Origin: Jimgerdemannia flammicorona
Taxonomy: Eukaryota
Length of the DNA: 64,000 nt
Direction: 5' to 3'
Assembly (NCBI GenBank): GCA_003990765.1
Contig: RBNJ01000003.1
Location: 1-64,000 of the forward strand
The first letter of the stretch is position 1, and each line of letters begins with the position of its first letter. A model generated the notes under the pieces. The model saw only the letters and a list, made by a program, of their open reading frames with translations, searched no databases and had not been told where the DNA came from. Positions 3,001 through 64,000 of the stretch are shown piece by piece. Position numbers and translations under genes: made by a program.

Positions 3001-4020
3001 CTCAGCATCTGTTGCAGCTCTATTACCTCCAATTTTACATACTCTAACCTCCAATTATTGACCATGCTAGCATTTAAAAAATCAGCCCATTCCATCTACA
3101 GTCTAACCAACTGATTGGAAGCATACCTCACTGTTTTTCTTCTCTGCTTCTCTGCCTCTCTACCAGTCTCTCCCTACTAAACCCATACAGTCTCTTTCAA
3201 CTTTATCCATCAGACACCCACTGGCAAACCCTCATGTATCCAGCTGGCAATCTTCACTTGGATGTCCTCCATCTATGAGTCTGACAAAACCTTCTCAGCC
3301 AGCAGGGAGGAGTTAAGGTGCCAATGTCCAGGTCCATCTCCACTTCTCCCAAACTATTCCTGCCCCAACAGACCCCAGTGATCAGACCATGGGTACCATT
3401 CCACCTCTTGAGTTTTCCAGACATCCACACTCCAGCATTTAGCCATCAGAATCCAATCTATCCTTATCCTAAGGCCCTTCACCCAGTGTGTGTAGATCCT
3501 CTTTTCATCCCACCCCATATAGCCTATATCTCCTAAGGAGCTTAGGTTCTCGACCCACTCCTCCCACCTGCACTCCTCCCTCCATTGGTCCTATCCAACT
3601 CTAGATTCCACACCATATTAAAGTCCCCTCCCAGCACATTGATGCCCTCCTCCAAGAGCACACCCTCCTCCAAAAGCCCCTTAATCTATATGATCCTCTC
3701 ACTCCTGGCTATAGGACAGTAGTAAGAGCCAACTTTCACTGGCTCCCACCCAGGTCAATTCTATTCTCTCCATACCAAACAGTCTCTCCAGCTCCTGATA
3801 TCTCTTAAGTCACCTTTAATAGTTTACACCAAAATCACCACCTTGTCCATTTATGCTGTAGCCCCTCCTCATTCACTAGTCCATTCTATATAGTCATCAT
3901 CATCTTCACAATGTACATCTTATAGCAGAAAGAGATCAGCCTCCAATCCTTTAAGCCAAGTGAAAATATTCTTGCACTACCCAGATTCCCTTAACCTATT
4001 TATATTCAATGAAAAAATGT
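1..4020 (-). pseudogene. LINE ORF2 remnant: apurinic endonuclease + reverse transcriptase
   Basis: ORFs 2148-2336 and 1785-2144 carry RT motifs. By-eye translation gives FSLNIN (~4000), GGDFN (~3620) and SDH (~3380), typical of APE endonucleases. Interrupted by the MITE at 1162-1772. Confidence 0.88.
1162..1772. mobile_element. Non-autonomous hAT-type DNA transposon (MITE), 611 bp
   Basis: TIRs TAGTGCTCCTAATGAGTCAAT / ATTGACTCATTCGGAGCACTA (1 mismatch); perfect 8-bp TSD AATATACC at 1154-1161 and 1773-1780; long internal inverted repeat (~1254-1410 vs ~1505-1663). Confidence 0.93.
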
Positions 4021-5985
4021 TAGTTATACTGTTTATAGGAAATAGTATTTAGAAGTAATGTCTCACTCATCCTCCACAAATCTGCATCCTGCCTCTCCTG
4101 TGCCAAGTCTAAGTTATGCTCTGCTGCCAGCCCCTCCTGTTCAGCTTCCTTTGCCTCCAATCTTTCCAGAAGTTCCACTATCTTGTCATCCTCCTTCTCC
4201 TCAAATTCCTCATAATACTCCAGGCAAGTCTCTTGCCAAAGTTGCAAACTATGCCTCTCTCCTTATCAACCTCATACCCCTTTTCCTCCAGAAAAATTGC
4301 AAGCACCTCTGCCTTCAGTGCCTCCACCACACTATTCCCCCTCAGAATCTATATCCAGTACTCCTCACTCATCGCCCTCAGGTTTACTTCCCCCAATTCT
4401 TCAGCTGCAAAGCTGTTTATCATCTGATACATCTACAATAGATTACCCACCTCTTTCCTCTCTGGAGTCACTGGCCTTCCTGCATCCAGCATTGTGGTAT
4501 CAGCTCCTATACTTGTAGTCTCATTCCACTCCTCCTTCAGTACATCCACCAGCTCATCCTCTCCAACAGCCACCACCTGTCCCCCTTTTGCCAAATCTGG
4601 GACTCCAAAGTGGATCTGCTTGGTACCACACATTGGAATATCCTCCACTGCCCTACTCTTTGCAGCAGGACCCCACCTGATCAGAGGGGGAGTATCCTCC
4701 ATAATAGGCTCCCAGACTTCAAACATATTATCCTCAAATGGTTCTACCTATGGTATCTTCCCAGCCTCCTCCAGAACTCTCTCTACTGCTTCTCCTTCCT
4801 TACTGGCCCAGATACTTGTCTCTGCACCCCCAGACTTCTCAATATCACCATCATTCTTCTTCTATACTTGCCAACAGCTCTCTCTGTCTCTTATGCCCCT
4901 GAGCCCTTTCCCACTGCCTTCTGTTGGTGCAGATATGCTTTTCTTCCACAATCTCCAAAAGCATCAACTCTACATATCTCTTCTAGACCTTTGCCCTCTG
5001 CTCAATAGCTCAACTCATCTCTTTCAGAGCATCTAACAGATTCTCCTCCTCCTCCTCCTCACTCCCTTTTACCCTTAATACCTAACAGATAAAAGCCCCC
5101 CATAGCATCACTAACAGCCAGTCACTTATCTTTCCAGTGGCCTCCTTCTCTGCCAGCTGAATTCTGATGTCAACATCTCCAGTTCTGATGGTGGTCCCCT
5201 TCCATATCTAGAAACCAATATCAACCACATTACCATATTCTACCATTACCTCCTCAACCCTCCTTCTTGTCTCAACTACTATTACTATAGGCACCCCCTT
5301 CACTAGCAGCTGAACCACTCTGGGGTCTCACTGAAGATAGTATATCATAGAGACCACCACTTCTCTGATCATCACTCTATTCTTCAGAGCCTCATCTAGT
5401 GGGCCTGTCTCCTCAAAGCCCACCTCAACCCCCTCCAGACCCTTTAGGAACTTCACCAAAGCAGTCCCAGCCACCTGCTTTGAGATAAGCCCCAGGACTA
5501 TTCTCATCATCACTGCTTAGCCCCAGAAGCACAAGGTAGCCACAAACTCTGAGATTGACTTCTTGAGCAACAGTGCTACTGTCAGTCCTGTCATACTATC
5601 TGCCAGGTCTCCCTTCTACATTGGGAACCCTGGCCCCACCTTGCCATCAACTGTCACATCTCTTTTTTTTTCCTGATTCCCCATCACACTCCTATCAGTA
5701 GTCTTTCCTCAGCCACAGCACCTCTAGCCCCTATGCTCACATCTCTTATCTGGATACTGCACTCTCTGCCAATACTAGCCTTACTCTTCCCCTCAGCAAT
5801 ACTAGCCCTAGCTCCAACCAGCCATCTACTCTCCTTCACCTTGTCTGCAAAGCTAGGGAGGCTAGTCCTTCCCCTACTTCTACCTAACACTAGTCCTTTA
5901 TCAGATACCTCTCCACCCTTCAACCCTCTCCATCCCCAGTCTATAACCTCTCCCTACATTCTGCCAGCCAAATGTCCCACCATCT
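4020..5985 (-). pseudogene. LINE ORF1 remnant
   Basis: Fragmented Glu/Arg-rich minus-strand ORFs (4020-4247, 4433-4726, 5328-5513, 5684-5923) directly upstream of the APE domain; no diagnostic motif recognised. Confidence 0.55.
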
Positions 5986-8979
5986 GAACTCTTGCTCTAT
6001 GATATTTTTATAGTACCTTTTCTCTGAGTTGTATCAAAACCATTGCTTGAAGTTGGTGTAACATGAATTGTACAGGAAAAAGGTGTGTAGATATCTGAGT
6101 GTAGCTCTCTTTATATAGAGCAAGGGCCAGATTCTGATCTTGATCAATCAGTTAATGGTTTGAACTTCTCTGACTTTGAAAGTCCTATAGATAAGTAGTT
6201 ACTAGTGCTATATTTCTAAGGGAATGGTCCAGACAGATTGTCTGCTTGTTATAGAACATGCTGTTACAATTTGCAGACTAGAACCTTGTGGGTAGTCATC
6301 ATTTTTTACATCTTTTATATAGGTTCATAGTACTTCTTGAGTCTGTTTCTATATACTATAATAGACAGTATAGTCTTTGAGAATTTTCTAAGCCAAAAAG
6401 TAGTTCTCTTTATATCTTGTACATAGAAGAGTCTTTTTCATTAAGCTTTAGTTTTTATAAATATAAGGCTTTTATTATATTTTGATATAGTAGAACCTTT
6501 TCTTTAATTTGAATAGATTCTAGGGTCTTATAATTCTTTTCTACATTCTTTCTTATTAGTGTTTGTAACTTGATAATGTAATCTTCTGCCTTCTTCCTTA
6601 TTTTGTGTAGTTTCCAGATTTCTGAGTCAATCTATTGCCAAGTTAGGTCTAGATTTGTGGCTGAGGTTCCATCAGAATCTTCTTCTCTAAAGAGCAGTTC
6701 TTTTGGAGTAAAGTGTATACTCTGTGACCATATATCTCATAGGATAGAAAGGACAGTTGAGAGGTAGTTATTTTAATTCTCATATATGTCTGAGATCTTG
6801 GCCAGAATGTTCTTCAGGGTCTTGTTTGTACTTTCTGTCTGTCTATTTCCTTGAGAGTAATATGCAGTAGTCTGATTTACTAAATCTTATATTTCTGATA
6901 TATTATTTTATAGAATCCATTGGCAAATTCTGTACCACAGGCTGTGGTGATTTGTTTTGGTATCTTGTAGTAGCAGATGATTTCTCAGTGTAGGAAGTCA
7001 GCAATAGAGAGAGTATTGGCTTCTTGTAATACTCCTACTTCTACTATTTGGTAAAGAGATCTATAATAACTATAATATAGCAGTTTCCTGATAGAGTTAC
7101 TAGTAGTGTTTAACATTATCTATTGTGATGTAGTGGAAGGGAATGGGCTTAATTCTTAATGATCTGGGTGCTTGGTCTTACTGATCTTGTTTCTGTTTTA
7201 GTACTTATTACACTGTTTGACAAATTGGTACAGATCTTCTTTTATCTTAGGCTATCATATGATTCTTCTTACTTTGTTATATATATTGATTCCTCCTAGG
7301 TATTCTTATTTATACACTTCCTTTATTACTTGATACTTCTTGTATTTGGATATGATGAGCTTTTCTTCTTTTCTGAGTATGTATTATCTAGTTTGAATTG
7401 TTTCCAAGTCTGGTTGATAATGGTGATAGTCCAGAGTTTGAGGTGGTTTGGTATCTTCTGCTGCCCATGGTAGCTGATAAATCCATAGTATAGCTCCTTA
7501 TTCATATTGAATAGTCTTGATGGAAGTATTTTGGAGTATCTTTAAAAGTATATCAGTATTGACATTGGTTCTTCCTGAGTAGTATTTGATAGTATACATA
7601 GTCATACTTTTACAGTCTATAGATCTATATGACATATATTCCTTTGGAGTTCAGAGTGTAGAATAGCCAGACAAGAGTGGAATGGTCTGATGGAATGGTG
7701 AAGTATTTTCTGGCTAGATAATAGTAAAACTTATCTACAACCCAGATTACTGCTAAGCATTCAAGCTTGTATAACTTATAGTTCTGTTTTGCTCTATGAG
7801 TATCCCAGCTTGCATAGAAGATGACATATTTGTATCTATCTTTCTTCTGAGCTAGCACTACTATAAGTCCTATAGCACTTACATCTGTCTGCAAGATGAA
7901 CTCTAGATTCCAATCTGGTCTTCTGAGGATGGGTGCTTGGGTTAACTTGGTCTTGAGTTTATTGAAGGTTTCTTGACATTTCTTAGTCCATTTGAATTTG
8001 ATCTCCTTCTTCAGTAGCTTATAGATAGGTGCTGCAATATCAGAGTATTCTTTAATATAGGTGGCCAGTCTGAAGAAGGCATAGACTTCTGTAGTTATTC
8101 TGGATCTTCAGTAGGCTCAATCATCATGGGGTCTATATGAATTTCAGTCTGATTGATAATGTGTCCTAGATAGAGAATTTCTTAAGCTATAAACTTGCAC
8201 TTCTTGAGCTTAATATAGAGGCTATGCTCCTTGAGCTGCTATATATAGTTAATATATTTCTATGTAGTATTGCTGAAGATGATCATATTATCAATATAGA
8301 TAAAGAGCTATTGTCAATTTCATTGCTGATGACTCTATTAATTATTTACTGAAAACTTACTAGGTTATTATACATTCCAAATAGCATTTGAGGGTAGATA
8401 GAGTGGTATTAGATATGAAAAAGACTGATTTCTCACTGGTATCTTGAGTGAGACCAATCTGATGAAAGTCTGAGAATAGATCCAAGATGGTGTAATATTT
8501 GGCTCTACTTCCAAGAGTGGTAAGAATTTCTTAAATATTTAGCAAGGGCTACCTATCCTTCTTGATAATTATATTGAGCTTTCTATAATCAATATAGAGT
8601 CTTGGGGCAAACTCTCTAGACTTGCTTTCTTTCTTTGAAGTGAGAACAATAAGTGAAGTCCAGGGGCTGATAGCTTGCTTAATAATACTGGCTTCTGCTA
8701 TTTTCTTAAGTTCTGCTCACAGTCATTCTCTATAAGCAAGTGGTATGGGTCTGACTTTCTGATAGATAGACTTAGTATCACCAGTATCAACTTTGTAGTA
8801 GTACTTAGGTTCTTGATTATAGATATCTCTGAAGTCTGTTATGAGTACTCCTTTATTCTGATATAAGATCTTGAGAAGTTGTTCTTCTAAGGAAAGGTTT
8901 CTCTAATAGTATATATATACTTACTCTGGTTGTATTTTTTATACTTGAGTTCAGTAATCTTACTGATAGTATAGACTCC

Positions 8980-9350: not shown

Positions 9351-11567
9351 TTTGGGATCTTGGCTTTGGGGTAAAACTTCTTGACCTTGAGAGTGATGTC
9401 TGGTTCTTGTTCCTCCTCTGGGGGCTGGTCATCTTCTTTGGCTTTCTTTTTTATTTTAACAGCTTCTTGCTCATATCTTTACTGACAGATTTTTCTAACT
9501 TCACTGATATAGAACTGGCAGTCATTTAGATGTTTGGAGCAGTACATCCTGATACCATGGGGGTATCTTCCTTGCAGAGCATAGTCATCAATAATTTTAT
9601 TGTACCACTGCTCATCTGTAAGCTTGATTGTCTTACTCTTATTCTTATACACTGAGTGGATGAAGACTTCTGTGTCCTCTTCATCTCCTTCCTCTATATC
9701 TGGTAGTACTCCTTTGTAGATATTGATAGAGACTTGTACCTTTCATCCTCTATAGTTGATCTGTATCTTCTGGGCATTGAGGTCAATGATAGCCTTGACC
9801 TTATGAAGCCATTGGTTACTAATGAGGATATCATAGTTGGTGGTACTTATAATGATCACATCTACTGAGATAGTAGCTCCTCTAATCTTGATGGAGACTT
9901 CTTGGATCTTGTCTAGAGGGGTAGCTCATATATCATCTGCTGTGACATAGACTATTTTGGTGGATTTCTCAATATCTCAGCCTAGGTAGTCAATTGTTTT
10001 CTTGCTTATGAGGCATCCTTTAGCACTGATATCAATGAGAACATCAAAGATACAATCTTTAATCTGATATTGAGTACAGGCTGAGGTCTTGCACTGATCT
10101 TCAGATTCTTCATCTGAGTCTTCTTGTTTATCTTCTTGTACATTGTGAGCTTCTATGATCTTATACTCTAAGTTCTTGACAGTAGTTGTAAGTCCTGCTC
10201 TCAACTGCTATAGACTTCTGCTAGTTGTTCCTAAGTAGTATTGACCTTCTGTTCCTTAAGGTCCTTATAGATATCATACTGATGGATCTTGGTCTTATAT
10301 AGCTTCTATTCTTTCTTACTTTTACTTTCTTCTGAGACTGGAGTAGTGCCTTTAATAATTTGACAGGTAGCTTCATCTAACTTCATATCTTGATCAATCT
10401 TCTCAGATTGGGTCTTACTTTGGATAGTGATTGTTGAGGTCTTTCTAGATCTTCCAACTAGCTTACTGTTGCTCTTCTTATTATAGAGCTTGGACTGGGT
10501 TCTAGTATCTTCAGTATTAGGGTAAAATTCAGACTCCTCATAGTATTCTTCATTATCAGTATCAATAATCTCCTTAATGACTAGTGTATTGATTTGTTCT
10601 CTGGTTCTGGTAGTATCACTTAGTTGAGCTCTACATTATACAATTCTTTACATAGTGGCCTTCTTCTCCACATTTGAAGCATGTGATAGTATATTTCTCT
10701 ATAATAGCTGCAAACTTCTGCACTGGTCTCCTGTTGGCTCTTTGTACTTCTCTAACAATATTACCAAGATATACTATTATCTTGGCAAATTACTGGGCAA
10801 GTTCCTCTACTGGGTCAGCTTTGGTCATTTTGGGAGTAGGTGGAGATAGTTGTCTTTTGAGTGCTATGGTGAGTATGATACTGATTGGCTTTGGTGGCTC
10901 TATCTTGATACCAGTTATTCTTTACATTGAGTATTCAGCAGAGTGTCTGACAGTTCTATACATATCTCTGTACAAAGACTACTTTCTAATCAAGGATCAG
11001 AGCAGCTAGAGTATACTGGATGGCTAGGGCAATTTCTTGGTAGACTTCTTTAGGAAGATTGAATCAGCTATCTATTCCTTGAGGGTATTATCATAGTCAA
11101 CTAAGACAATCTGATAGCAGATTTGGGTGTAGAATGAGTTGAAGTCTTTATTGAGTCCTTGGCAGATAGTATTGAGTTGATCTTTGAGAGCTTGCTTGAT
11201 CTCTTTAGTATGATATATAGTTCTGAGAAAGTTCTTCATATTGGTGAGTTTGGCTATACCAGTATTAGTAAGAGTGGTTTACATTGAACTTATCTCTGAC
11301 AGGTCCTCTGAGGTTGATAAGTAGAAGTGTAAATTGTACTTCAACATTGAGAGCTTATACAGTAGCAAATTGTTCAAAGTCTTCAATAAAGGTCAGGATT
11401 AACTCTTAGTAGTAAATCTATAGAATGTGAGAGAATGCATTTCAATTTTATCTTGAATTCTTACAGGGGGTGACTCTTGTAGTTAGGGTAGTTGTTGTAG
11501 TGATTGTTTATTATTTAGCTTGAAAGTAAGAGATCCTAATGATATCACTAGCTAATAGGTACCAAGT

Positions 11568-13148
11568 TGTCATATAGGGGGTACTAAGTTCTCCAAGTAT
11601 ATCAGATTCTCTTCAAGATATATCTCTTAGACCAACTATAAGTTTCATATAAGTAAGTTCTATTAGAGTACCTTCCCAAGGTCTTATAGTCCTTAAACTT
11701 CATATCTTTAAACTATTCTATTGTTTCTTGGATTTGCTTATGTGGAATTGAGTACAGGACTGAAACTTTTGTACTCTTGAGTAGTTGGGTACTTAAATTC
11801 TTGAGAGTTTTTAATACTGGCTTTATTTCAAAAGAAATGAGAGGGGTATTTATACAAAATATAATTCAATGGTTACTAAGTTATAAAACTAAATATAAAT
11901 CCTAATAACCAAATAGATAAGATACTTGAACACAGAAAACTTCAGGTTGTAATTACAAATTTGAGTACTCATACAAATAGTTATATAAGATCAGAATACT
12001 AGAATAATTTCAACAGTTATACAAAGAACTTAGAGCAGAATGTTCAGAATCCTGAGGACTTTATCTTCATCACTATTATCAAGACCAGAGGTTGGGATAT
12101 CTTTGAAGGGACTAAGGTCAATAAATGTTTCTATAAGTATTCTGTTTATTTTATATATTGTGGGTATTTTGTACATTTTATATATGTCAATTAGTAGGAT
12201 GACATCATTGCTGATGATGTCATCACATTCAGTAGTAGTGGGGGGAGTAAGGAGATCAGAGGCTCTCTAATCTATGATATTTTCCTCCACAAAGTAGGGG
12301 ACAAAGGTGGGATCTTGAGGGGGTCTAACCTGGATACTGGGGTCTTAGAATACTGAGATTAATTCTTATAGGAATTGATTTGAGTTATAATTGAGAATGG
12401 AATTCTAGAACTCTTCTTTCTTATCACTTTTGAGAGTGATAGTAGATTGGACTTCTGTAGCCACTATAGCCTCCAATGTATCTGTGTGGCAGGCTGAAAA
12501 TTTCTTGAAGTCAGAGACTCTGGTATACTCCAAGTTGGGGATTGACCAAAGTATATATCTGAAATTTTTTATAGCTACTCTCAATTCACATATATCTATA
12601 GAGATAATATCTTGTATCTATTAGAGACTGATCTGAGGAAATTCTCAGCATAGAAGGTTTTCTAGTTTATATTCCTACCACATCTAGAGATATTTGGTAG
12701 CAGTAATAATCCTTATCTCTATTTCACAGCAGTAGAGAATATAGTGGTAAGAGTCACCAGTATCTAGGTTAATGCTAGAAATTCTTCTGATATGTGTCCT
12801 CATAGCTCCTCTGATGTCTTGAAATATCCTTTCTTTGACTGAGAATCCTTGGTAGTTCCTGGATCTTATAGTTTGGTGAGTGGTAGGCATTTTGTTTTTA
12901 GTGAGTCTTTTGAACTATTTCAGAATTTTGTGAGTCTTGTTTAAGGTGCTGCTGCTGTTGTTTCTTGGTCCTCTTTTATATTCTTGAGATATTCATCTTA
13001 TAGTCATTATGACTCATAGTTTGTCATCATTGCTCATCTTGTAGTCTGGGTGAGTTATGCCATATAATCCTCTTGTGCTCTGATCTGGTAGCTTGTAAGG
13101 AAAGACTATCTTCTATAATGATACCACTATTCTGAGATTACTGTTACA
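11568..13148 (-). repeat. Putative 5' LTR of Gypsy A (~1.58 kb) containing a decayed accessory ORF; possible alternative inner boundary at 12279
   Basis: Starts TGTCATA next to a TGG-initiated PBS-like sequence (11547-11563, minus); minus-strand TATA-like TATAAATACCCC at ~11845-11856; ends TGTTACA+ATAT. The partner LTR is not in the window. Confidence 0.6.
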
Positions 13149-15109: not shown

Positions 15110-16890
15110 AGTATCTAGCCAGCTCCATCCAAACTACTAAGACTCACTCAAAGTTGAGCTACTCATTATCAATATAATCCACCAGTTGCTCTCATAAATT
15201 ATTCCACCAGCCTCTCTTGCCATCCTCTCTTCTCACCACTTTTAGATAATTCTTAACTACTATTCAGAAGTTATCAGGAATCTTGTACTCTCTCAGCCAA
15301 TGTTCAGACATCTGTACAAGCTCCCCTTCTACCCTATATAATAGTACTTCTTATAATCAAAGTGTCCACTATCTACCAAGTGACTTAACTGAAGGGTCAG
15401 CATGATATTGCTCCTCAATAAATATTACTACACTACTCAGTACTTTGAAGAAAGTCACTATTGTACTTCAGTACTCCAGGATCAGATATCTGTCCAGTCT
15501 CACTACTCTACTCCAGTACTAATATCAAAGTCTACTAGAGAGAAATCCCCCAATAGTAACTGATCCTATCTCTATATCACTGGACTCTAATCAATCTCCC
15601 CCTCAATATCTGCTAGTATAGTCTAATATGATAGAAACTATCAGCCACTCTTTACTAGAAGTCCTTACACTACAAGCACTTACTACTATTTAGTTCAACC
15701 AATGACAACAGATTATCCAACAAGCCTCTGGGGAAAAACCTCCTCTCTCAGATCTTCTGTATCAGTAGCACCCACTCACTACTCTGTAGTTCAATATTCT
15801 GCTTCAACCACATAATACAACCTTTTAGAGAAGTTCATCAGACTAATATCACTTCTATTTACTAATATAGCTAAATTCTTCTCTCTTAGCTGATACTAAC
15901 TTCTAGCCCAGATCCAGTTCTTAGTCAATTTCAATAATCTCTTCATGACCTAGGTCAGAATAGTGGTAAGCCAGATATCATAGCTTTAGTAATTAGTAAA
16001 CATTTAGAATTAATATCTGTCTAGCCAGAGAGATATAGAACTTTCTCAGCTCTGAAGGTCTGCCCCCCAATTAGCAACCTTTCTCTTCTACCAAACTCTA
16101 GACAAAACAGATCTATATACTAACAAGAAGATAACCAGATATCTCATGGCTTCTCTTATAGTAACAATTGCCAATAATGTCTCCATCCACTAGTCTATTC
16201 TCCAATACTATTATCTTACACATATTCCAGTTAAGCTTTGCTCCAGAATATTTCTCATATTATTCTACCATTTCTCACAATATCTCAACATTAGTAACTA
16301 AGCCAAGACCAACTATTATATCATCTGCAAAGATACTAACCCTCTACACCATTCCAAAAACTGAGAGTCTAATCACCCTATAGCAAATTCTATTCATCAA
16401 TAGCTCCAATGACAGAGTATATAGAATATAGGACAATGGGTCTTTCTGAGAAATGCTCCTTCTCAATAAAAATATTATACTATAATGACCATTATATATA
16501 AGGGCCACCTGACTACCCTCTAGTAGACTAATTATTGAAACTCTAAACTGCTGAGAAATACTCATTCTTTCCATCATCTTTTCTAGCCAAACTCTTTAAA
16601 CCTGATTATAGACCTTCTTCTGATCCAGAAAGACCAATCACCCATTCAACTTACTTACTCTCACTCTCTCAATTGCACTATATACCCAAGCTATCCCATC
16701 TCTAATAAGTCTGTCTCTTAATAAAGTCTTATTTCTTCTCACTTAGTATCTGTTAGATCACTCTCAAGAATTACCTTTGTGACCAGCTTTCTGTTTATAT
16801 CTAGAAGTTTGATTGGTTACCAGTTCTTCTAATCCTCTCTCCTGTCCTTATCCTTAAACAGCAGGACCACCAGACTAAGTTTCTGCTCCT
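15110..16890 (-). mobile_element. Second decayed L1/Tx1-like LINE RT fragment
   Basis: ORF 16344-16577 (ISQKDPLSYILY), FADD at ~16320-16331, and clear similarity to the RT region at 1780-2620. Confidence 0.85.
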
Positions 16891-18989: not shown

Positions 18990-21046
18990 AAGATTATAAG
19001 CTCTACTAGCATTAAGTAGCTATAGCATATATACCTTATAAATATATACTACACAATTATATATACTAGAAATATTAAGTAATAAATAACCTAGAAATAT
19101 GGATATGCTAATTGGAAGTATTCTGATAACAGGAGCAGTCTCTATTGTAAGTATAAATACAGCCAAGAGATCCATCCTGATCTTCAATGGAAAAGATTAT
19201 ACTATCTAGACATTTTATATGATGAATCTCCTTGATGAATGCGGCTTGGGAGAGTATATATAACCACAGATTCAAGATTTACAATCTCAGAAATGATCAC
19301 TAAGCATTATACAAGATTATATTCATATTTTCAAATTTACAAACAAGCTCATAATATATGCAAATATGGCCAATGAGATATAGGAAGCTCTACACAATTA
19401 TTATATACAAGTATCTATATCAAATAGATTCTATCCTATTCAATCTTCAAATGAAGCCCAAGAAGAGTATTTACAAATATATCAGTCATATTAACAATCT
19501 GGTGAATTAAGTAAATTCTCTCAGTATATTTATAGATTATATTGGCAATAAAGATAAGGTTATTATACTCACATGGAGACTTCTGGATATGTATAATATT
19601 ATCATTATAGTCATATATGAGAGCAGCAGCCTTTCAGACTATGCCCACATGATAACAAGTCTCATGAATGAGGAAATACATATACTAAGGAAATAGTGCT
19701 GAAGACAATGATAATGAAATGGCATTTTATGGGTTCTGTGGACATAGTACCAAATAAGATCAAAGGTGCAGTCAATAAAGCCAATGAACTCAAATCCAAG
19801 CTCAACAATATAACAACCAATCAACTAAGTATGATGGTTATTATGAATACTGCAGCAAGTATGGACATAGAAAGCACCAATGTTATCACTGATAGAATAA
19901 TAAGGAGAGCAGTGAAAACAAGCATTAAAAAAGCCAGCATTGGTAATATAGATATGAGAACTATTTAGAAAAGTATGGTAATACAAATACTACAGAAACT
20001 GATAACAGCAGTAATCTATTTTTTGTACAAGTACCAGCTCTACTACCAATTCTATCAGCATGAGATCAATATTTACAAAACCTAGTTAGAAGGATGACAA
20101 TTTTGGACCAAAAAGTCCTACTAATTCTACCAGTAGTGCCAGTTCTGCCAATATAAGATCTATTACTAAATCTACCAACTTATCATCCATAAGCACCAGT
20201 CAGCCAAATACTTTGAACTGATGAAAAGTGGTAATAACATTAGTACCACCAGTAGTACAGATAGAAAAATCACCAATTATATGCCTAGTTATATATATAG
20301 AAAATACACCAATATAGCTAATAACAATAATGTCTAGTAATGAATTCTAGAGCTATATAATATATAATACCATACAGAAAATGGTTCTCCATATATCAAC
20401 TATTTGAGCATCCTGTATACATCAAGTTGGGAGATAATAATATCATCTATACTCAAGAAAAGGAAATTATTGATATACATCTCTACAGAAATATCATTGA
20501 GCTTGCTGCTACTCTTGTAGATGTACTATATACTCTAGAGATAGGAAAGAACCTCTTCTCTATAGACAAAATGATGATGTATAGTAACAAAGGGATATAT
20601 ATATATTCAAAAAATATAATAGTATATGATTCATATAATAATAAGAAGTTAATGACAGTCCCAAAATGTGGCAATCTTTACTCAATTAATAGGATATTGA
20701 GTAGTATGAAAGTCTCTGCATACATGACTACTATATCTGACATATCCAATATTTGGCATCAATGCTTAGGACAAATTGGCAAGATAAGTCTCAAATATAT
20801 GATAAGAAGTAGATCTATCAATAGATTACTGGTATATATACATATATATACATGGTAATTTCTTCTACAAGGATTATGCAGTAAATAAAACATTCCAGCA
20901 AATATTCAAAGAATGATTAAAGTATATATCTGTGATTCTTGACCTTATATATATGGATATATATGGGCCAATTCATATTCTGTCATACACCAGTAAGTGG
21001 TATTTTCTCACATTCATTGAAAATAATATATATAAAGTATATATAT

Positions 21047-23349
21047 TGTGGCGTTGGTTATGTATAATGAACTTCGACTGCATAGCTCAATGTGTGCCAC
21101 TGGTGAAGTGCACGATGGATAACTGAATGCATTGGTGACGTTCGTGGGTTGTTGATCACGTGATCGGCTCATTTGATTCGTGCCGTAATTGATAATAGCG
21201 AGAGATTGTTTGACAATAGTAGCTCAATATTCAGTGGAAAAAGGTGTTGTTGCTAACAGAGGGTGGTTACTTGGGTATGCTGGTGGCGATAGACCTTATC
21301 AGAATATGCGGTCGATTTGAAGCAGGCGACGGTCTTGACTTTAAGAGGTTCGTGGTGCAGTAGGTCGGGAAAATGGAGGTTGATGGCTTGCTCATCCATC
21401 TTGGTTAATCTTGAAAGGTTCCTGGCAGTCGTTCGGGTCTTTGGTAGTGGGTCAGTCTTTGGCGGTCTAGTATCCTTTGGCTGGGTATCCTTGGGTTCTT
21501 TAGCTATATTGCCAGGGTCTTGAATCCCGAATGGTGGTCTGAATGCACAGTGGTCGTGGTCTTGAATCCTTGGCTGGGTCTCGGATCTCGAATGGCGGCA
21601 GTCAAATAGTGGCAGTCGGGTAACATTTTCTTTCCATGGCAAGAGAAAATTCTTTAACTCAAACTTCCGAGTGATCTATTGCTCTAGGTTGTTATCTTGT
21701 TCTCAGAATTTATCCAGTCTCTTGGAGGCAGTGGTTATTTCTCAAAACCAGTTGACTGAGGTTTATTCACTCTAAGAATATGGGTTATTTATACAAGTTT
21801 GCTAGCTATGGGGGAGGGGGCACAACTAAGGCTAAGGTATACTACGTTGTGGCAAACTTCGCTATGCTATTGGCTTGTATGATGCGAGGTGCAGGCTATT
21901 GTTTACTATGGATTGGGTTATAGGGGATAGCAATGCTGGATTCGGATGAGCTGACAGGAATGCTGATTGTTGCCAGAAATGGTTGTGGAGGGTAGCAATG
22001 CTGAAAATGGGTGTTGCTGACTTGCTGACAAAATGCTGAAAACGGTGGTACTGGGTAGCAACCCTGGAAACAGACGAGCTAACATGATATGATGATTGTT
22101 GCCAGAAACGGTTGTGGAGGGTGGCAATGCTAAATTCGGACCTGCTGACAAAAATGCTGAGTTCTCACGGCTGATGGGTGGTACTCTAGAGGAAATAGTA
22201 CCCTTCGTCTGCAGTGGGCAAATCTTGCTGGGTTGCGATTTCTTCTTCATCATATCTCTCCTCAAAGGGGGGAAGTGCCGGCCAAGAGGTGAGGGGGTAG
22301 AAAAGTGGCCAGTCATCTTCAACAACATTTTCCAATCCCTGAACTGCTTGAATGCAGACAGAGGACTGGTAGACTCTCTGTTGCTCCTCTTCTTCTTCTG
22401 AAGACTCGTCAGTTTCAGTGTTAGAGGGGGTTTCTTCAGGGGCAGGGCCTTGGAGTTCTTGGGCTTCTTCTTGATTCGGTTCCCAAGTGATGAGATGTGA
22501 ATTGTGGCTGACAAGGTGGTGGGTGGTTGGGGTAGCTCCAACGGGTGCTTCTATAGTAATGGGTGATCCTTCAAATATCTCCATAAGACTCATTAGGTGA
22601 CCTTGATGGTTGTCTCGGAGTGGAGTGGTGTGGAAACCTGGCTGAGTAGGTTCAGTTTGTTGGCTTCCTACAGTGATGCAGTTGCTGCCAATAGTGTTGG
22701 CTACTTCAGATTCTATCCAGTCAGCATCTTCAGTTGAAAGGCGGGAGAGGCTGCCAGCTGTTACTCCTTGCAAGTGTGCTATAGCTCAGGGAATATGGTG
22801 AAAGATTTGGTGGACACGAAGGGCTCTCTTGATTAGCCAGCTGGTGGTTAACATTTTGGCAATGAGGTCTTCCTGGTCATCTTCTTGAGTCTCATTGCGA
22901 AGGTGGTGTCCGATTTCGTAGTCATGCCAGAGGGTCATTTGTTCAGTAGAGTCTTTGAGCTGTTGGGTCATTATATACTGGTAGTTGATGAAGTGTCCAA
23001 GGTCCTCGGTGTAGAAGTTCAAGTGTTTGGAAGTATCAGGATGCCAGATGGCCTTCTTGATAGCTTCAAAGATCAGGGTCTTTGGGCCAGGCAAAGGGGT
23101 AGAGTGGCGGGAGGTCTGGTTGGATTGGCGAATGGGAGGTATTGTGTAGTGGGTACTTGGTTCTTTGGTGCCGATCCCTGAGGTAGAGTATGGTTCCTTA
23201 AATAATGTGGTCTTCATTTTGGCTTGGATCATCTTGTCTTCTTTTGGGATGATCACCTAATAGGTCAGGCTGTCTATTTGATTGTCACGCCATTATGTTG
23301 TCTAATCTTAGCAGTCACTGGTACTCCATTGTCAATTGCGTATGTCATA
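21047..23349 (-). mobile_element. 2.3-kb solo LTR of a related Gypsy family, inserted in Copia F integrase
   Basis: TGTGG...TGTCATA termini with ATAT on both sides. The Copia integrase sequence resumes after removal. Carries the family TATA/AATAAA block (GAGGTTTATTCACTCT...TTATACAAG, ~21758-21797). No gag/pol. Confidence 0.8.
22186..23256 (-). pseudogene. ~357-codon ORF of unknown function inside the solo-LTR U3, with one internal TGA
   Basis: ORFs 22786-23256 and 22186-22773 are in the same frame, separated by a single TGA (probable CGA deamination); homologous by eye to ORF3 of B/C. Confidence 0.72.
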
Positions 23350-24099
23350 ATATATATATCTTTAATCAGTGAAAAGTAAAGTATTGGACAAATTCAAAGA
23401 ACTTAAAGCAATTACTGAGAATGAGACAGAATATAGAATATATGCTATATGATTAGATAATAAATACAAATATATCAATTATATATTTAAGCAGTTTCTG
23501 ACAAAATATGGTATAATCTATTAAATGATGGTTCCCTATATATCTCAGCAGAATGGTATATCTGAGCAATTTAATTATACATACATATAAATAACATGTA
23601 TGACAATCAATACTGCCAGACTATTTTATTCTTATTGAGCTGAAGCAATAAAAACTGTGGCATATATATGCAATTGATATAAATCTCAATCACTAAGCAA
23701 GATTTCCAGCAAAATAAATATTCCAGATATGATAATCTTATATCTGAAGAATTATAGAGTGGATCTAAGCTAGATGTATCACATCTATACATATTTGACT
23801 ATAAGACATATATTCTTAATAAAAGCAATATTATCTAAGATAAGTTCTAATCCAAGGCAAGCAAGAATATATTTCTTGAGTATCCTGGCAAAGCATATTG
23901 ATAATGGGATCCATACAAGTAGTATATAGTCATTTTATATAATATATAGTTCAGAGAAAAAGAAAATAGCTTGGAACTGTATATAGAGGTACCAGTTGAA
24001 ACCTCTACATCTATATCTCAGTTAGTATAAATATAGCAACCAGTGTAACTATCATCCACCTCTCTCGCAGTCAATCAAAATTATTTTCAACCACTATAT

Positions 24100-25366
24100 T
24101 GTAATGTACCTAACTCAATAGAGGCAAATTACAAGGTTGGGGGTTGATGTAGTTTGGCTTGAGCCCCCAGTTACTTTGTCAAAAAGCAAAAAATTTTCAA
24201 ATATTTCTGAGGTCCTTGTTGGTGTTTAGTAGTATAATAGTTAAAACTAGATCTCTGTAAGAAATTTCCTTATTGGGACAGTTCTCTGGGTATAGTAGTG
24301 ATTTGTATGAAATGTATTTTCTTCTTGGATCAACTGGGAATTGGTAGAAATTCATATATAGTATAATCTCCTAAAGTATGTGATTTCTGGGTGACAAATT
24401 CTTGTGTAGTATGATGATCTTGTGTGTGACAGTCTAGCAATTTAGTGGTTTCTTCTTCTTAGATAGCAGGCAATCTCTATATAGTGCAATGATCTTCTTA
24501 CTGGAAATAATACTGGTAGTGGGTAACTCAACAACTCAGGCTCACTGGGAACAACATATAACTTAGATGTCACATAACTTATATAACTTAGATGTCATGG
24601 ATTCTTCCTAAATTGGCAGCTTTAACTGGAAATATGAACAACTGGTGGCTTTGGGAAAGGGTCTCTTGGTAAATTTATGTTAAAGACTGGTTTTGTTTGT
24701 ATGATAGATTACTGCAAAGTTGTATCAGAAACTGGCTTGAGCAAGGCAGCTTTCTTTTAGGCTTTCTGGGAATGTGAATAACTTAGAAATAGTAGCAAAG
24801 TTCTTTCTTGAACTTGGGTAGCAAACTTGGATTCTTTAGACTAAGTCTGGCAAGTATACTAATAATTCTAAAGGCAGTGAAGTTCTTCACTCAAACTTGG
24901 TAACAAAATCAGCTTTGTATTGAAAAGTGGACTGAAGTGGAAAGGGGACCAATGCTCAATCTTTAGAGGCTTCTTTGGTGTTTGTATTTTGGACTGAGGT
25001 TTATTCACTCTTGTCTATGGGTATTTTTATATAGGTTAGTTTCTATCTGATTGCTATGTGGCTAGCTATAGATTTACTACTTCTGGAAATATTTGGGTAT
25101 ATTCTCTGGGTATCAGTATATCCATAGGACATGAGTGTGTCTGTAGGATATGAGTGTGTCTGCAGAACATGAGTGTGTCCACCAGACACAGGTGTGTCCT
25201 CAGGATTTAGATAAACAACCCTGGTGTGATATCCTGGCTAATTATAAGTATGGTGGGTGTGAGTAACTATGATATACTGGAAGTCATGTTATGCTGGCTA
25301 AATATACTAATTATTCACATCATCTGGCTAAGTTATAATTTAGGTGGTATATTTTGGTTTGTTACA
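24100..25366 (-). repeat. Gypsy B 3' LTR
   Basis: TGTAATG...TGTTACA; direct repeat of 32836-34088. Confidence 0.93.
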
Positions 25367-25405
25367 TCAGCTCTTACTAAAGGATAGTCTGTTCCAGACA
25401 ATTCT

Positions 25406-25921
25406 TTAGTCATTATTCCAATAGGTATAAGCAGCTTCTGCATCTATACATATTCTATCATCTTTATTATCTATACAAGAGTCACTCCATTCTAAAGGCT
25501 CCTCCTCTTCCTTAGAAAATAGAGTCTCAACATAGTAGATGATACTGAGGTAGGTGGGCAGAGTCATTCTTTAGAGATTGTTTAGGGAGAACTGGGCCTG
25601 GATTAGAGCTAAAGGGTTTTGTTTGTAGATTGTATATAATCTTTCTGCAGCAGTAGTATTCCTTCAGTTCAGACCAGTAGTGTTGCAGACATAGGTCAGG
25701 TCTGGGAGGGGGAGATTCTGCAATTGTTCTCCAATTGCATAGTATGTCTACAGCTGGTGGACTTAGAGTAATCTCTTAGCCAGAGTGAGGTTTTCTTGAT
25801 GAACCCAGATTCTCTGAAGGTATGTTCCATTGAGTTCTCTGAACTATAATAAAGGAACTAGTAGGGCTTGAAGGGAACTAAGGACAAGAGTCTGAAGGTA
25901 GTTGTCAATTCTCTGGTTCAT
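25406..25921 (-). pseudogene. Gypsy B accessory ORF3 (~170 codons) between integrase and the 3' LTR
   Basis: ATG at 25921 overlaps the pol end. Reads MNQRIDNYLQ...YYAIGEQLQNLP...AAERLYTIYKQNPLAL... with a few stops; conserved at protein level in C 52518-52948. Confidence 0.72.
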
Positions 25922-32815: not shown

Positions 32816-32833
32816 TTCCCAGTTGAGCCCCCA
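32816..32833 (-). promoter_or_regulatory. Primer-binding site, tRNA-Pro-like
   Basis: TGGGGGCTCAACTGGGAA lies 2 nt inside the 5' LTR. It resembles the canonical Pro PBS TGGGGGCTCGTCCGGGAT once CpG decay is allowed for. Decayed copies at 59779-59796 and ~37511-37528. Confidence 0.75.
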
Positions 32834-32835
32834 AA

Positions 32836-34088
32836 TATAACATGCCCAGCTCAATAGAGGTAAATTACAAGGTTGGGGGTTGATGTAGTTTGGCTTGAGC
32901 CCCCAGTTATTTTGTCAAAAAGCAATAAAATGTTCTAAGATTCCTAAGGTCCTTGTTGGTATTTAGTGGCATAATAGTCAAAACTGGATGTCTGCAAGCA
33001 ATTTCCTTATTGGGACAGTTCTCTAAGTATAGCAGTTATTTGTGTATAAATGGATTTCCTTCTTGGGTCAACTGAAAATTAGTAGAAATTTAGGTGTAGT
33101 GTGAGCTCCAAAAGTATATGATTTCTGAGTGATGATTTCTTATATAGTATGATGATCTTGTGTGCAATTTAGTGGTTTCTCCTTCTTGGGTGGTAGGCAA
33201 TCACTATGTAGTACATATAATGATCTTCTTACTGGGAATAATGCTGGTAGCAGGTAACTTGATAACTTGGACTCACTGGGAACAATGAATAACTCAGATG
33301 TTGGATAACTCAGATAACTCAGATATCATGGATTCTTCCTAAATTAGCAGCTTCAACTGGAAATACAAACAACTGATGGCTTTGGGAAATGGTCTCTTGG
33401 CAAAGTTACATCAAAGACTGTCTTCATTTATATAATAGATTACTGTGAAGTTGTATCAGAAACTTGCTTGAGTAAGGTGGTTTTCTTTTAGGCTTTCTGG
33501 GAATACAGATAACTTAGAAATGATGGCAAAGTTCTTCCTTGAACTTGGGTGGCAAACTCAGATTCTTCAGGCTTAGTCTGGCAAGTATACCAATAATTCC
33601 AAAGGTGGTGAAGTTCTTCACTCAAACTTGGTGGCAAAATCAGCTTTGTATCAGAAAGTAGAACAAAGTGAAAAGAGGACCAATGTTCAAGCTTCTTTGG
33701 TATTTGTATTTCAAACTGAGGTTTATTCACTCTTGTCTCTGGGTATTTTTATACAAGTTGGTTGCTATCTGATTACTATGTGGCTAACTATAGATTTATT
33801 ACTTCTGGTAATGTTTGAGTATATCCTCTGGGTATGGGTGTGCCCACAGGACATGAGTGTGTCTACAGGACATGAGTGTATCTATAGGACATAAGTGTGT
33901 CTGTCAGATAAAGGTGTGTTCTCAGGACATAGATAAATAACCCTGGTCTGGTATTCTGGCTAATTATAAGTATGGCAGATATAAGTAACTATGATATACT
34001 GAAAGTCATATTATATTGGCTAAATATGCTAATTGTCAACATCATCTGGCTAAGTTATAATTCAGGTGGTATATTTTGGTTTGTTATA
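32836..34088 (-). repeat. Gypsy B 5' LTR
   Basis: Direct repeat of 24100-25366; adjacent PBS; 18-bp tandem repeats in U3. Confidence 0.93.
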
Positions 34089-36280: not shown

Positions 36281-36404
36281 TGTTGAGATAGTAACTTGAT
36301 ATATCAATATATGATTGGTGATTTCATCAGTCTTATATTATCTATCAGTAATGTATGAAATATATATCCTATATAAGCTCAATAAAAAGCCCCTCCTTTT
36401 AACA
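36281..36404 (+). repeat. Copia F 3' LTR
   Basis: TGTTG...TAACA termini, preceded by a purine-rich AAGTAAGAG; contains TATATAA and AATAAA. Confidence 0.8.
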
Positions 36405-38519
36405 TTTTTCTCAATATTATTTGAAGTAGTTTCTTACTTGACATCAATATATATCTGGGCTATATCTACTTATTTATTAGGTTTCTTAATATAAATAGTA
36501 TGAATATACTAAGTAATATTGGAAGAGATTCCATTTATAGAGATTATTAAACTGTTAATATCTTAGTTAGCAGTACTGAAATCAGGAATATATATTCTTT
36601 TCTGAATTATTATACAGAATTCTTTTGGGGATTTCTGAGATTTATCTTCATTCTTATAATAGATTCTTAGATTTTATAGTAAGTTTCTGTTCCTATATAC
36701 TTTTTAATAATCTAGTAAGAGATGGCTTCATATTTATCTACATAGTAGTATATATTAGCTATATAAAACCTCAGATCAGAGTTTGGATTATTTCATATTC
36801 TAGTAAAGATTCTTTTAGCCAATTTTCTCAGTTATATCTTGAAGACTATAATTTGTTTTCTGGGATCAAGGTCCTTTAGAGATGTAATTTATTCAAGATT
36901 ATCTAGAAATTCTCTTGGAACTTTTTCTAAATATTCTACAAATATTGGTAGAGATGCTACTATTTCTTCATTACTATCTTCTAGATTTTCTTTAGTTTTA
37001 GGGCTGTTTTACTTATTGTAGATGAACTGAGTCTAGTTGAGCTACTGGGAGTTAATAAAGTTGAAGGATTATACTTGGTCTTTAGAGTACTGAGATACTT
37101 CTTACTATTCTTAAGAGTACTAAACTCAAAGAATCTGCTAGTCCAGATAGATAAGATAGGTGAGACTTTTAGAAAAATATGAAAATATGACAATATAGTT
37201 TGTATTAGTTTCTCAAAATTTTAGATAGAGTTTCTATATTATCTGGTTGATTATATCTCTTATAAGAAAGTCTGCTAGTACTTCTGGAGTATTCATAAGC
37301 TATACTCTTGGTAATTGGACTGGTTGAGAATTATATATAGTGCTGGCCTCTGGTTGAGATTCTTCTAATACTAGAGAGTTGATAAATCTTAAGGTAATTA
37401 CTTTTCTTTCTATTCTCCTATAGTAGTAGAGATTGGTACTCTATCAAATATATTTAATTTAACTATTAGATTCTTATGAGCTGAAAAGTTATATATATTT
37501 AAAGAATATCTTTCCAGTTGGGCCTCCAAATATAATATACTAGCTCAATAGAGATAAATAATAAGATAGGAGCTGTTGTGTAAATTGGCTTAAGTCTATA
37601 GTTACTTTGTCAAAAAGTAATAAAATTTTTATTTATTTTTCAAAAGTATAAGTTCTCTGATTTATATAGTATAAATGATTTCAGTAGTTTCATTATTAGG
37701 TGGATTTGGTATAATATAGCAATTTCAGCAGATTTCTTAAATAATATAAATTTATAAATAGCAGATTTCTCTTCTGGCTCAGTCTGACAAGTATACTAAA
37801 TATATTAAATTTCTCTTCTGATATAGTCCAGTAAGTATATTATATATATCTGATTTCTCTTCTAGCTTAGTCTGGCAATATACCAAAATATAATCAATTT
37901 TTTAAATTCAGGCTTAATCTAGTAAGCAGACAAAAATTATCAGACTTCTATTGATAAAGTTATATAAATTAACTACTTTATTTATATGAATAAGTTTACT
38001 ACAAAGATGTGTCTGATTAACTAGCTTAGGTCAGAGATAACAAAATTCTTTTCTTTATATCAAAAAGTAGATTAGAGTAGAAAAGAAAGCTCACAATCTT
38101 CTAAATATTAGCTATAGATTGAATATTTCTTCTAATTATTACAATTCTTTCTAGATCAAGGTAACTTTTGACAGATATATATATTTCTTAAAGTGTATTA
38201 GATAGACTTGTTTTTTACTTTAGAATATTTCAGATTGAGATCTATTAACTCTTTTCACTGAAGTATTTGATATAGTTATAGTTGCTAGCTAGTTACTATA
38301 TAACTACTTATATAATATATAATAAGATTAATTTTAAAAGATATTTTCTCAGAGAATAGATATTTCTTCAAAGTACAGATGTTACTCCAGAGTTCTATCT
38401 TGATATTATAGAATTTGTTCTAATTTAGTATATCAGAATATTTATACTATAGTAGTATATAAGGATAACAATTAAGATAATTATACTAAGTATTTTGTAC
38501 ATTATCTAATTATATTACA
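36405..38519 (-). mobile_element. Gypsy D, right part (gag N-terminus, PBS and 5' LTR 37531-~38519)
   Basis: Colinear with B from ~31723 into the 5' LTR; PBS-LTR junction TTTCCAGTTGGGCCTCCAAATATAAT at 37511-37536. Confidence 0.75.
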
Positions 38520-40499: not shown

Positions 40500-40839
40500 A
40501 AGACTTTCGTTTATGTATCAGAAAGTGGACTGGAGTGGGAAAAGGAAGCTCTCTGCTTTTCTTTGACTTTTCAGACTGAAGTGTATTCACTCTTTTCTCT
40601 GGGGTATTTTTTACAGTTGTGGTTGCAATCTGGTTGATATCTGGATAATTAAAGAATGCCCAGTATGGCCAAATATGGTATATAACTTCCACTGTACCCT
40701 CAGGATACAGTACCTTCAAGGCACAGTACAGTGTCTTCAAGGTTCAGTCAACTCAATCTGGCTATTTATGCTCTTTATATATTTTCTGCCATAACTGAGT
40801 AACTATATAGGTGACTATAGTATACTAAGTATTTATATC
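40500..40839 (-). repeat. Partial LTR of the B/C Gypsy family; its terminus continues at 45945-45981 after the Copia E insertion
   Basis: Matches C LTR 52150-52275 (GTGGGAAAAGGAAGCTC, TATTCACTCT...GGGGTA); ends TATCACA at 45981. Confidence 0.72.
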
Positions 40840-51459: not shown

Positions 51460-52477
51460 TGTAATGTGCCCAGCTCAATAGAGGCAAATTACAAGGTTGG
51501 GGGATGTGTGAATTTGGCTTGAGCCCCTAGTTACTTTGTTTAAAAGCAACAAAATGTTCTAAAATTCCTGAAGTCCTTTGATGTTTAGTAGTATAATAGT
51601 CAAATCTGGATATAGCAGTTAATCATATGTCGATTTCCTAATTGGGTCGGTTCTCTGAATATAGTAGTGATTTGTGTATGAATAGGATTCCCCAATTAGG
51701 TCAACTGGAAATTCCTGTGTAGCGTGATGATCTCTTGTTGACTGGGAATAGGTGGATAATTTGTGTAGTATGAGCGGTTTCCTTCTTTAACTGGGAATGC
51801 GGGTGATTTATATAGCATGACAATCTCCAAAGTAGATGATTTCTGGGTGATGACAGATAACTTGGGCAGATTTTTGGCAAAGTTACATTAAAGACTGGCT
51901 TTATTTGCATGGAGTTATGTTGAAACTGGCTCTACTGCGAAGTTGCGTCAAAAGACTGGCTTTGTGGCAAAATTCCTAAGGTGGCAGGTTTGAACTTAGA
52001 TAGATTTCTCTTCAAATGGCAGCTCTTCTTGAGTGGCAGAATTCGGATTCTTCAGGCTTGTAATTTCTTAGCAGTGGCTCATTGGCAGGTTTCTCCTCCT
52101 AAGTGTACCAGACAATTTACTTTTATATTTCAAGCTTTCGAACTCAAACTTTGTATTGGAAAGTGAACCAGAGTGGGAAAGGAAGCTCCTGCTTTTTGAT
52201 TTCAAACTGAGGTTTATTCACTCTAGCTTCTGGGGTAATTTATACAATTTGGTTGCTATCTGGTTGCTATAAGGCTAACTATAGGCCTGCTATTTCCAGT
52301 AATAGTGTTCCACTTGGGATGGGTGTTCTGCTTGGAACAGGTGTTCTACTTGAGATGAGTGTTCCACTTGGGATGAGTATACAGATTTGGTATTTGGGTT
52401 AATTATAAGTAGGTAACTAGGTAACTATATTTATACTGAAAGTTTGCATCATCTGATTATGTACTTGGCTCATCACA
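51460..52477 (-). repeat. Gypsy C 3' LTR
   Basis: TGTAATG...ATCACA; direct repeat of 59799-60778. Confidence 0.93.
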
Positions 52478-52517
52478 TTAGCCCCCACAAAAGGGTAGTC
52501 TGTCCCCAGACTGTCCT

Positions 52518-52948
52518 TTAGTCATCATCCCAGTGGGGATAAGCATCATCTGCATCTATTCCTGTCCCATCATCTTTATCTAAGCTGCAGTCACTCCATT
52601 CTAAGGGTTCTTCTTTTTCTGGGGATAGGATTTCAACTTGATGAATGATGCTGAGATAGGTAGATTGGTTCATTCATTATATATCTCTGAGAGAAAACTG
52701 TGCCTGTCCCAGGGCTGAGAGATTTCTTTTGAAGATTGTGTACAGTCTGTCTGCTGCAGTGGTGTTCTTTCTGCTCAGACCAGTGGTGCCACAGATATGG
52801 ATCACATCCAGGGTGGATAGGTTCTGCATCAGTTCTCCAATTGCATAGTGGGCCTAATGCTGATGGATTTGTAGAAGCCTTTCTGCCAGAATGAGGTTTT
52901 CTTGGTGATTTCAGATCTTCTGGATATAAGTTCCATTGGGTTCTTGGA
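52518..52948 (-). pseudogene. Gypsy C accessory ORF3, N-terminus deleted
   Basis: Reads QEPNGTYIQKI...HYAIGELMQNL...AADRLYTIFKRNLSALGQAQFSL...YPHWDD*. Confidence 0.72.
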
Positions 52949-63760: not shown

Positions 63761-64000
63761 CTTTTATATTTATTTATTTTATTATATTATATTTTCCAAA
63801 CCACTATATTTTTATACAAATCTTACAAGTTGGTCATTACTGTTTTATTATTTCTGCAATATTCAGAGATCTTGGACTATTGACATTGAATATATCTATA
63901 GTACCATATGCCATCTGTGTAAGATAGATGGCTATATTCTAGAAGAATACTAAATTGACAACTGTTCTAATACTGTCTGTATTGAGAATGATCAAAATCA

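Follow-up and report, generated by a model that had tools for sequence, protein, structure and literature searches.

The long terminal repeats (LTRs) of retrotransposons are usually regarded as regulatory sequence without coding function, and a solo LTR as an inert relic or a stray promoter. In retroviruses, mouse mammary tumour virus (MMTV) carries the complete open reading frame (ORF) of its superantigen gene, sag, within the U3 region and hence in both proviral LTRs, while the accessory genes at the 3' end of spumaviruses (bel/bet and Tas) and of lentiviruses (nef) extend into U3. Tas, which has an internal promoter of its own, encodes an activator with an acidic domain. Here we describe an insert (hereafter INS) at positions 21047-23349 of a 64,000-nt stretch of Jimgerdemannia flammicorona DNA (contig RBNJ01000003.1, positions 1 to 64,000; hereafter the window), which is probably a solo LTR, on the minus strand, of a Ty3/Gypsy-type lineage in which an accessory gene of ~320 codons enlarges U3 to ~1.55 kb, the copy in the window being dead. 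The INS family resembles MMTV sag in having a complete accessory ORF inside U3. MMTV, however, is a vertebrate betaretrovirus with env, whereas this locus belongs to a Ty3/Gypsy-type retrotransposon with dUTPase, in which no env was seen. The spumavirus and nef genes merely overlap the LTR, whereas in the INS family the whole ORF and a candidate promoter lie inside it. The ORF region of the MMTV 3' LTR is named as such in the abstract of PMC2118998.

Extra ORFs are also described in LTR retrotransposons, where they are regarded as captures and placed downstream of pol in the relevant part of PMC6431247. These examples resemble both the LTR gene family and the third ORF (ORF3) of two full-length elements of the window, A and B, in being ORFs of unknown function in Gypsy-type elements. 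Their positions are internal in that part of the source, whereas the ORF of the INS family lies inside the LTR, and is thus duplicated and left behind in solo LTRs. The same part of that source places dUTPase between the protease and the reverse transcriptase (RT) in fungal and rotifer elements, and dUTPase is found at this place in A and B as well. For the fungal element crapaud, the sections of PMC10787394 that deal with its LTRs describe subfamilies whose differences are concentrated in the part of U3 before the TATA box, and state that the terminal TG may become TA through repeat-induced point mutation (RIP). A terminal TA is likewise found at the 5' end of INS, but the crapaud U3 is described in those sections as non-coding and under 200 bp long. 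A full-text literature search of partial coverage returned retroviral cases only and no LTR-resident gene in a non-retroviral LTR retrotransposon. What appears to be new here is therefore an LTR-resident gene outside retroviruses, in an unannotated protein family, U3 accessory genes being already known from retroviruses.

The assignment of INS (21047..23349, 2303 nt, element sense on the minus strand) as a solo LTR draws on its A/B-like ends, an empty-site paralogue, the lack of gag and pol, and junctions with a polypurine tract (PPT) and a primer binding site (PBS) in contigs of relatives. INS interrupts an AT-rich Copia integrase frame, and an uninterrupted Copia paralogue at 43650-44030 represents the empty site, lacking both INS and ~6 AT bases at the joined position. 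The absence of these bases fits a short ATAT-type duplication, and ATAT can be read from the sequence on both flanks, at 23350..23353 (a presumed copy of the target duplication) and at 21043-21046, although the exact duplication length is uncertain in this AT-repeat context. The 5' terminus of the LTR, TATGACATAC (23340..23349, minus), has TA where the family consensus starts with TG; INS reads T[A]TGACATAC compared with TGTGAC/TGTAAC in A and B, and TG is present at this point in a relative from sequencing run X2 (at a loose contig end, 23347). The 3' end reads ...CGCCACA, compared with ...TTACA in A and B. By blastn, the sole similarity between INS and the LTRs of A and B is a 45-56-nt block containing a TATA box and AATAAA, at 21755-21809. 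The distance from this block to the 3' end is typical of the family (708 nt, vs 744 nt in B and 865 nt in A), giving an R-U5 part of ~708 nt at 21047..21754 (minus) that ends in ...CCACA and is comparable in length to those of B and A. In contrast, the LTR start and the block are ~1540 nt apart in INS vs 221-371 nt in B and A. Because only the latter distance is enlarged, the extra length of the LTR is all U3, mainly the reading frame at 23256..22186. No gag or pol domain was found in the four ORFs of INS tested against Pfam (no family better than E 0.07), INS lacks the PBS pattern, and neither Rfam nor TRF gave a match on it. The end comparison, the Copia paralogue, blastn and Pfam all agree with the first-pass annotation, which had noted LTR-like ends, an ATAT duplication, the family TATA/AATAAA block and the absence of gag and pol. 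Two imperfect repeat copies (77% alike, unit ~115-128 nt) at 21925..22160 (minus), between the ORF stop and the TATA block, are possible enhancer repeats, and their copy number varies among relatives, as seen at joints in contigs. Within U5, relatives in three runs skip 99-133 nt of the stretch 21463-21631, which points to a variable internal repeat.

The reading frame is composed of two minus-strand frames, 23256..22786 (156 codons) and 22785..22186 (199 codons), which form one frame split by a single TGA and ending in TAG at 22186-22188. None of 1000 first-order Markov simulations of INS produced 356 codons interrupted by no more than one stop (simulated maximum 287), and the same-frame ORF of ~357 codons with one TGA that had been reported earlier is thus longer than chance would give. 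The family profile matches INS over 23142..22219 (E 9e-191), and the start methionine of relatives aligns with 23142-23140 in all three sequences covering that column, where INS reads ATA. The gene proper is therefore placed at 22186..23142 (minus; 318 codons and a stop), from the family start position to the TAG, as an accessory-gene pseudogene that has lost its start codon in INS. For the in-frame TGA (22786..22788, minus), the first-pass annotation had predicted CGA, i.e., arginine, in paired copies flanking gag-pol. This did not hold: each of the four sequencing runs compared with the window (X1-X4, of which X2 is a soil metagenome) has T>C at 22786, and the residue is tryptophan in five of five relatives covering the column. 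The INS copy is a pseudogene with two disabling changes, the lost start and one stop. It should be noted that the runs with relatives amount to seven rows from four studies, with no RNA dataset listed among them and all with small shares, which offer no basis for statements on expression or habitat. The differences between INS and the contigs of X1-X4 are mostly transitions. In run X1 this holds for 154 of the 172 differing places, with A/T in INS against G/C in the contigs at 100 places and the reverse at 54, a bias consistent with decay of the window copy by deamination or a RIP-like process. The listed differences are mostly the dead copy's own changes and are as such unsuited to a test of third codon positions.

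Intact relatives of the INS frame were recovered at several levels of divergence. A word-indexed search gave two clusters with seven sequences (P0001, P0003, P0007 and others), which are intact and 74-79% identical to the INS frame, the complete ones being 324-331 aa long. An exhaustive profile search of 1.84 billion protein representatives returned eight proteins at E up to 0.001. Diverged but intact forms include P0009 (342 aa), P0011/P0016 (247 aa), P0008/P0015 and P0014/P0017, so that relatives overall span 247-342 aa and several subfamilies that are 25-56% identical. In addition, a metagenome locus (L001), the sole match of a second metagenome contig scan, encodes an intact member of 291 codons; no relatives were found in the first metagenome scan, in viral contigs or in genome contigs. 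The start MPP/MPA is conserved across subfamilies, as are the motifs W-H-x-Y-E-I-G-H-x-L, A-x-[KR]-x-H-Q-[IV]-F-R-H-x-P and F-E-G-P-P-I and an acidic tail, with YEI..L and H..P..I invariant in the family. The DNA of INS, L001 and a second copy in the window, carried by element C (see below), cannot be aligned (blastn; with blastn-short, nothing beyond a 20-nt core of the TATA block), while the proteins match (e.g., P0011 against INS, E 1e-17), and conservation is therefore at the protein level. Judged from these sequence comparisons, the INS frame is a real gene. No Pfam family was found in any of 12 family members and no PDB sequence matched the profile at E up to 5, and these searches likewise detected no sequence relation to MMTV sag, nef or bel2/bet. 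The AlphaFold model (mean pLDDT 40.3) was too poor for a fold search, the ESM Atlas held no usable match, and no fused or longer forms of the protein were found, which is weak evidence. All listed family members are named "hypothetical protein".

The placement of the gene inside the LTR is indicated by contigs of relatives in the soil metagenome X2. A contig of 330 nt covers 23044-23347 with 18 mismatches (~94% identity) and continues for 26 nt past the LTR end into a PPT-like sequence, ...TTTTGCAAGGGGCAGA, followed by TG. This tract closely resembles those found just before the LTRs of A (...TTTAGTAAGAGCTGA) and B (...TTTTGTGGGGGCTAA), where pairwise LTR alignment fixes the LTR start. The contig thus joins a PPT-like tract to the LTR start, the leader and the N-terminus of the ORF. 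At the opposite LTR end (21047), a separate X2 contig extends outwards for 245 nt and enters TTTTGGGGGCTCAACTGGGAAA, which is the PBS of the family. The PBS joined to the LTR end, TGGGGGCTCAAC, is also that of A and B, its core having no mismatches to A (32816-32835; PBS of A, TTTGGGGGCTCAACTGGG) and three to B.

A second family member with the same layout, heavily decayed, is found in the 5' LTR of element C (11478..13148, minus; ORF 12890..12030), which was delimited by the P0011 alignment, the LTR start and the promoter block. P0011 aligns in full length to 12827..12033 with 53% identity (E 7e-68) across nine in-frame stops, and the family profile matches with E 4.6e-51. The LTR begins at 13148 with ATAT followed by TGTAACAG (TGTAAC), and the gene lies 258 nt downstream, with TATAAAA at 12980, an ATG at 12890 and, 3' of the gene, TATAAATA at 11854 and AATAAA at 11827. 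Next comes a gag frame with a zf-CCHC zinc knuckle at ~10687-10640 (E 3.6e-5), and then a pol that is collinear with that of B, down to 6271. Upstream of the LTR start there is a LINE-like RT (16676-16209) and not a gypsy integrase. Since the gene of element C stands upstream of gag, it cannot be an ORF3 preceding a 3' LTR. The gene therefore accompanies two different LTR lineages, those of INS and C. Together with the X2 junctions, this supports the proposals that the ORF lies in U3 and that a PPT would be found upstream of it, the PPT-like tract adjoining the LTR start on the ORF side. With 33% G+C and nine stops, element C seems to bear a stronger deamination/RIP-like signature than INS. 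The LINE-like RT occurs in two minus-strand copies in the window, at 1989-2459 and 16209-16676 (RVT_1, E 1e-14 and 5e-5), which are 69% alike over ~640 nt.

A different origin of the INS arrangement is suggested by elements A and B, in which ORF3 follows integrase and precedes the 3' LTR without being part of it (25367..25885, minus, in A; 52482-52982 in B). These ORFs of ~150 codons are 55% identical in one frame, and both have stops, one of which they share. INS could accordingly be an internally deleted element or chimera, in which the ORF was an internal ORF3 before a short 3' LTR and was joined by deletion to the first bases of the 5' LTR. A and B favour such an origin by their short U3 and by the weak collinear similarity of their ORF3 to the family: they are the best non-family matches of the family profile, at profile positions 70-122 in both, though with E values of only 0.3-2, and hhalign aligns the family with ORF3 collinearly over 122 columns (P 0.012, probability 3.5%). 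At these values the homology of the LTR gene to the A/B ORF3 is only suggestive, and the "ORF3 domain" that the first-pass annotation had assigned to the INS ORF is not established. If the homology were true, the sister elements would keep the gene outside the LTR while the INS and C lineages hold it inside. A deletion origin gains a further point from L001, where a PPT-like run and TGTAAT directly follow the stop. Opposed to it, INS contains neither a purine tract nor a second LTR start between the ORF stop (22186) and the TATA block, and its first 250 nt do not recur downstream (score 14, vs 11.9 +/- 1.4 for shuffled sequences and reached by 22 of 200 shuffles). The junction of LTR start, leader and ORF is also present in the independent X2 contig, where it is preceded by a PPT-like tract and not by a target site, and the ORF of element C is upstream of gag, an impossible place for an internal ORF3. 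The first-pass annotation had held that full-length relatives with short LTRs excluding the ORF would speak for a deletion or chimera; such LTRs are present in the distant elements A and B, and are not found in the INS family. We consider a deletion or chimeric origin unlikely. Both ORF3 copies end in an acidic stretch (EEEPLEWSD...DDD), with the common in-frame stop ~13 codons before the LTR start, and in element A the last stop of this frame abuts the first TG of the LTR.

The ORF might also be located in the LTR as a passenger, a captured or de novo sequence that is useless to the element and is drifting to decay. That both copies in the window (INS and C) are dead, that the family is tiny in databases and that the protein has no recognisable domain would all be expected of a passenger. 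On the other hand, ORFs have stayed intact in subfamilies that are only 25-56% identical, with the start, the core motifs and the type of tail kept while the flanking DNA is unalignable, and the gene is found with two different LTR lineages. The listed sources of family members are all JGI/IMG or ENA, and the listed sequences therefore give no sign of a host paralogue in an annotated genome record. A mere passenger is thus improbable, to about the same degree as a deletion product. The proposal that INS is no LTR at all, but another mobile or duplicated segment such as a retrogene or a non-autonomous element with a common promoter block, can appeal to the fact that just 45-56 nt of it can be aligned to known LTRs of the window. 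It is very hard to reconcile with the termini, the target site, the position of the block and the PBS and PPT junctions, all of which match the LTR family.

Our preferred interpretation, a solo LTR with a resident accessory gene, has several points to its disadvantage. The PPT and PBS junctions come from one contig each, in one soil metagenome, with only 26 nt on the PPT side, and an ORF-bearing LTR beside gag-pol was seen only in the related element C and on its 5' side, with no pair from the INS family itself. Even for element C, the 3' end of the LTR (~11478) is tentative and the PBS cannot be fixed, since the LTR-end/PBS regions of A, B and E (a third A/B-type element) align with C no better than with shuffled sequences. 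A and B themselves have a short U3 and a possibly related ORF3 upstream of the LTR. Since the stop of L001 is directly followed by a purine run, GGAGGGAGGA-TTGTAAT, a possible PPT and LTR start, the gene may be internal in the L001 subfamily, where the alignment is too weak for an LTR start to be located. Finally, neither fold, Pfam nor PDB gives a clue to the function of the protein. L001 also contains a motif of ~34 nt (GTCAGGCGGAAC...CAGAACA...) at 171-204 and 1481-1514, ~1310 nt apart, upstream of the gene and near the 3' end of the contig, respectively, which might represent a repeated enhancer or point to tandemly arranged units.

With the gene residing in the LTR, its expression may be considered in relation to two TATA-like elements. 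The conserved promoter/polyadenylation block of INS (21755..21809, minus) contains TATAAATA at 21793-21786 and, at 21767-21762, the sole AATAAA of INS. The same block is present in the LTRs of A, B and E, with a diverged form in C; copies are located at 21755-21809, 33715-33768, ~24993-25046, 52206-52259, 60485-60529, 40569-40655 and 11822-11854. Its ~55 nt (TAGCAACCA..TTGTATAAATA..AGAGTGAATAAACCTCAGT) are conserved among otherwise unalignable LTRs. In these copies the TATA box always precedes AATAAA by ~26 nt, a spacing which suggests that the poly(A) signal lies at or just upstream of the transcription start. A further TATA-like box is found upstream of the gene, at 62 nt from the start in INS (23204), 90 nt in C and 80 nt in L001. 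It reads TATAAAA(G) in C and L001 and TATTTAA in INS (23198..23204, minus), where it is a candidate ORF promoter box. In INS and L001, both with 47% G+C, no other TATA-like motif precedes the gene, and C and L001 have the start context ACAAA(G)ATGCC in common. This upstream box, 60-90 nt before the start, would direct a monocistronic mRNA of ~1.4 kb ending at the single AATAAA of the LTR. Genomic RNA would be transcribed from the other TATA box, ~26-31 nt upstream of AATAAA; it would as a consequence begin at or after this signal and could read through to the 3' LTR. Read-through of this kind is consistent with the marked conservation of the block among LTRs that cannot otherwise be aligned.

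The gene would lie between the 5' end of the LTR, i.e., the plus-strand priming site, and the TATA/AATAAA block, a position from which reverse transcription is predicted to copy it into both LTRs, and LTR-LTR recombination would leave one gene copy in every solo LTR. As for the protein, three of the four members examined have a basic N-terminal stretch of 30 residues (pI 10.8-12.0), and the conserved core of ~190 aa is probably helical. The acidic tail reported for the INS ORF is confirmed in the translation (ETDESSEEEEEQQ). The tails have a pI of 4.1, with 18-29 D+E vs 2-5 K+R and 18-40 hydrophobic residues, and contain repeated DLIxF-like or P[LWM][IV]LNF motifs. By its composition, such a tail suits an activation domain or another interaction through short motifs, and our best guess, offered with low confidence, is that the protein may be a nuclear regulator of the element's own transcription. 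A broader scenario can be sketched, which we regard as doubtful in its full extent. In it, the LTR would be a self-contained cassette with its own promoter, a gene and a shared poly(A) signal, so that every LTR, even a solo one, could make the protein, and genomic RNA would start just past the signal. The gene would derive from the internal ORF3 that the sister elements A and B have retained, and would have moved into U3 as the priming site and LTR start shifted upstream, and the protein would be a trans-activator working on the repeats before the TATA box of the TATA/AATAAA block.

The window as a whole is AT-rich and contains retroelements nested within one another. Elements A (LTRs at 24114-25364 and 32850-34086, 83.5% alike) and B (LTRs at 51462-52480 and 59801-60781, 84.5% alike) are full-length, of Ty3/Gypsy type and on the minus strand, and both have dUTPase, RT and RNase H domains. 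Their LTRs start with TGTAAC or TGTGA[CT] right after a purine-rich tract and end in ...CATTACA, followed by the PBS, with ATAT on both flanks. Element E consists of A/B-type remains at 36287-37638 and 40569-40655, comprising a gag start, a PBS with three mismatches (37511-37530) and an LTR end; with the TATA block ~2.9 kb away, a further insertion probably splits this LTR. Other features of the window include a strong and unusual negative GC skew in region 1-6000, an inverted repeat at 1252-1663 (177-nt arms, 86% complementary, 58-nt spacer), and an AT-rich, satellite-like tandem array at 62566-63776 (unit ~120 nt with sub-periods of 67-70 nt, 75-90% matches).

An LTR-resident gene of this kind would have consequences for annotation, for gene dosage and for our view of how such genes evolve. 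Masking of LTRs would hide a protein family. Each transposition would add two copies of the gene, and each recombination between LTRs would still leave one. The INS family would also represent a non-retroviral parallel to sag, nef and bel, and its sister elements may show the step that preceded the move of the gene into U3.

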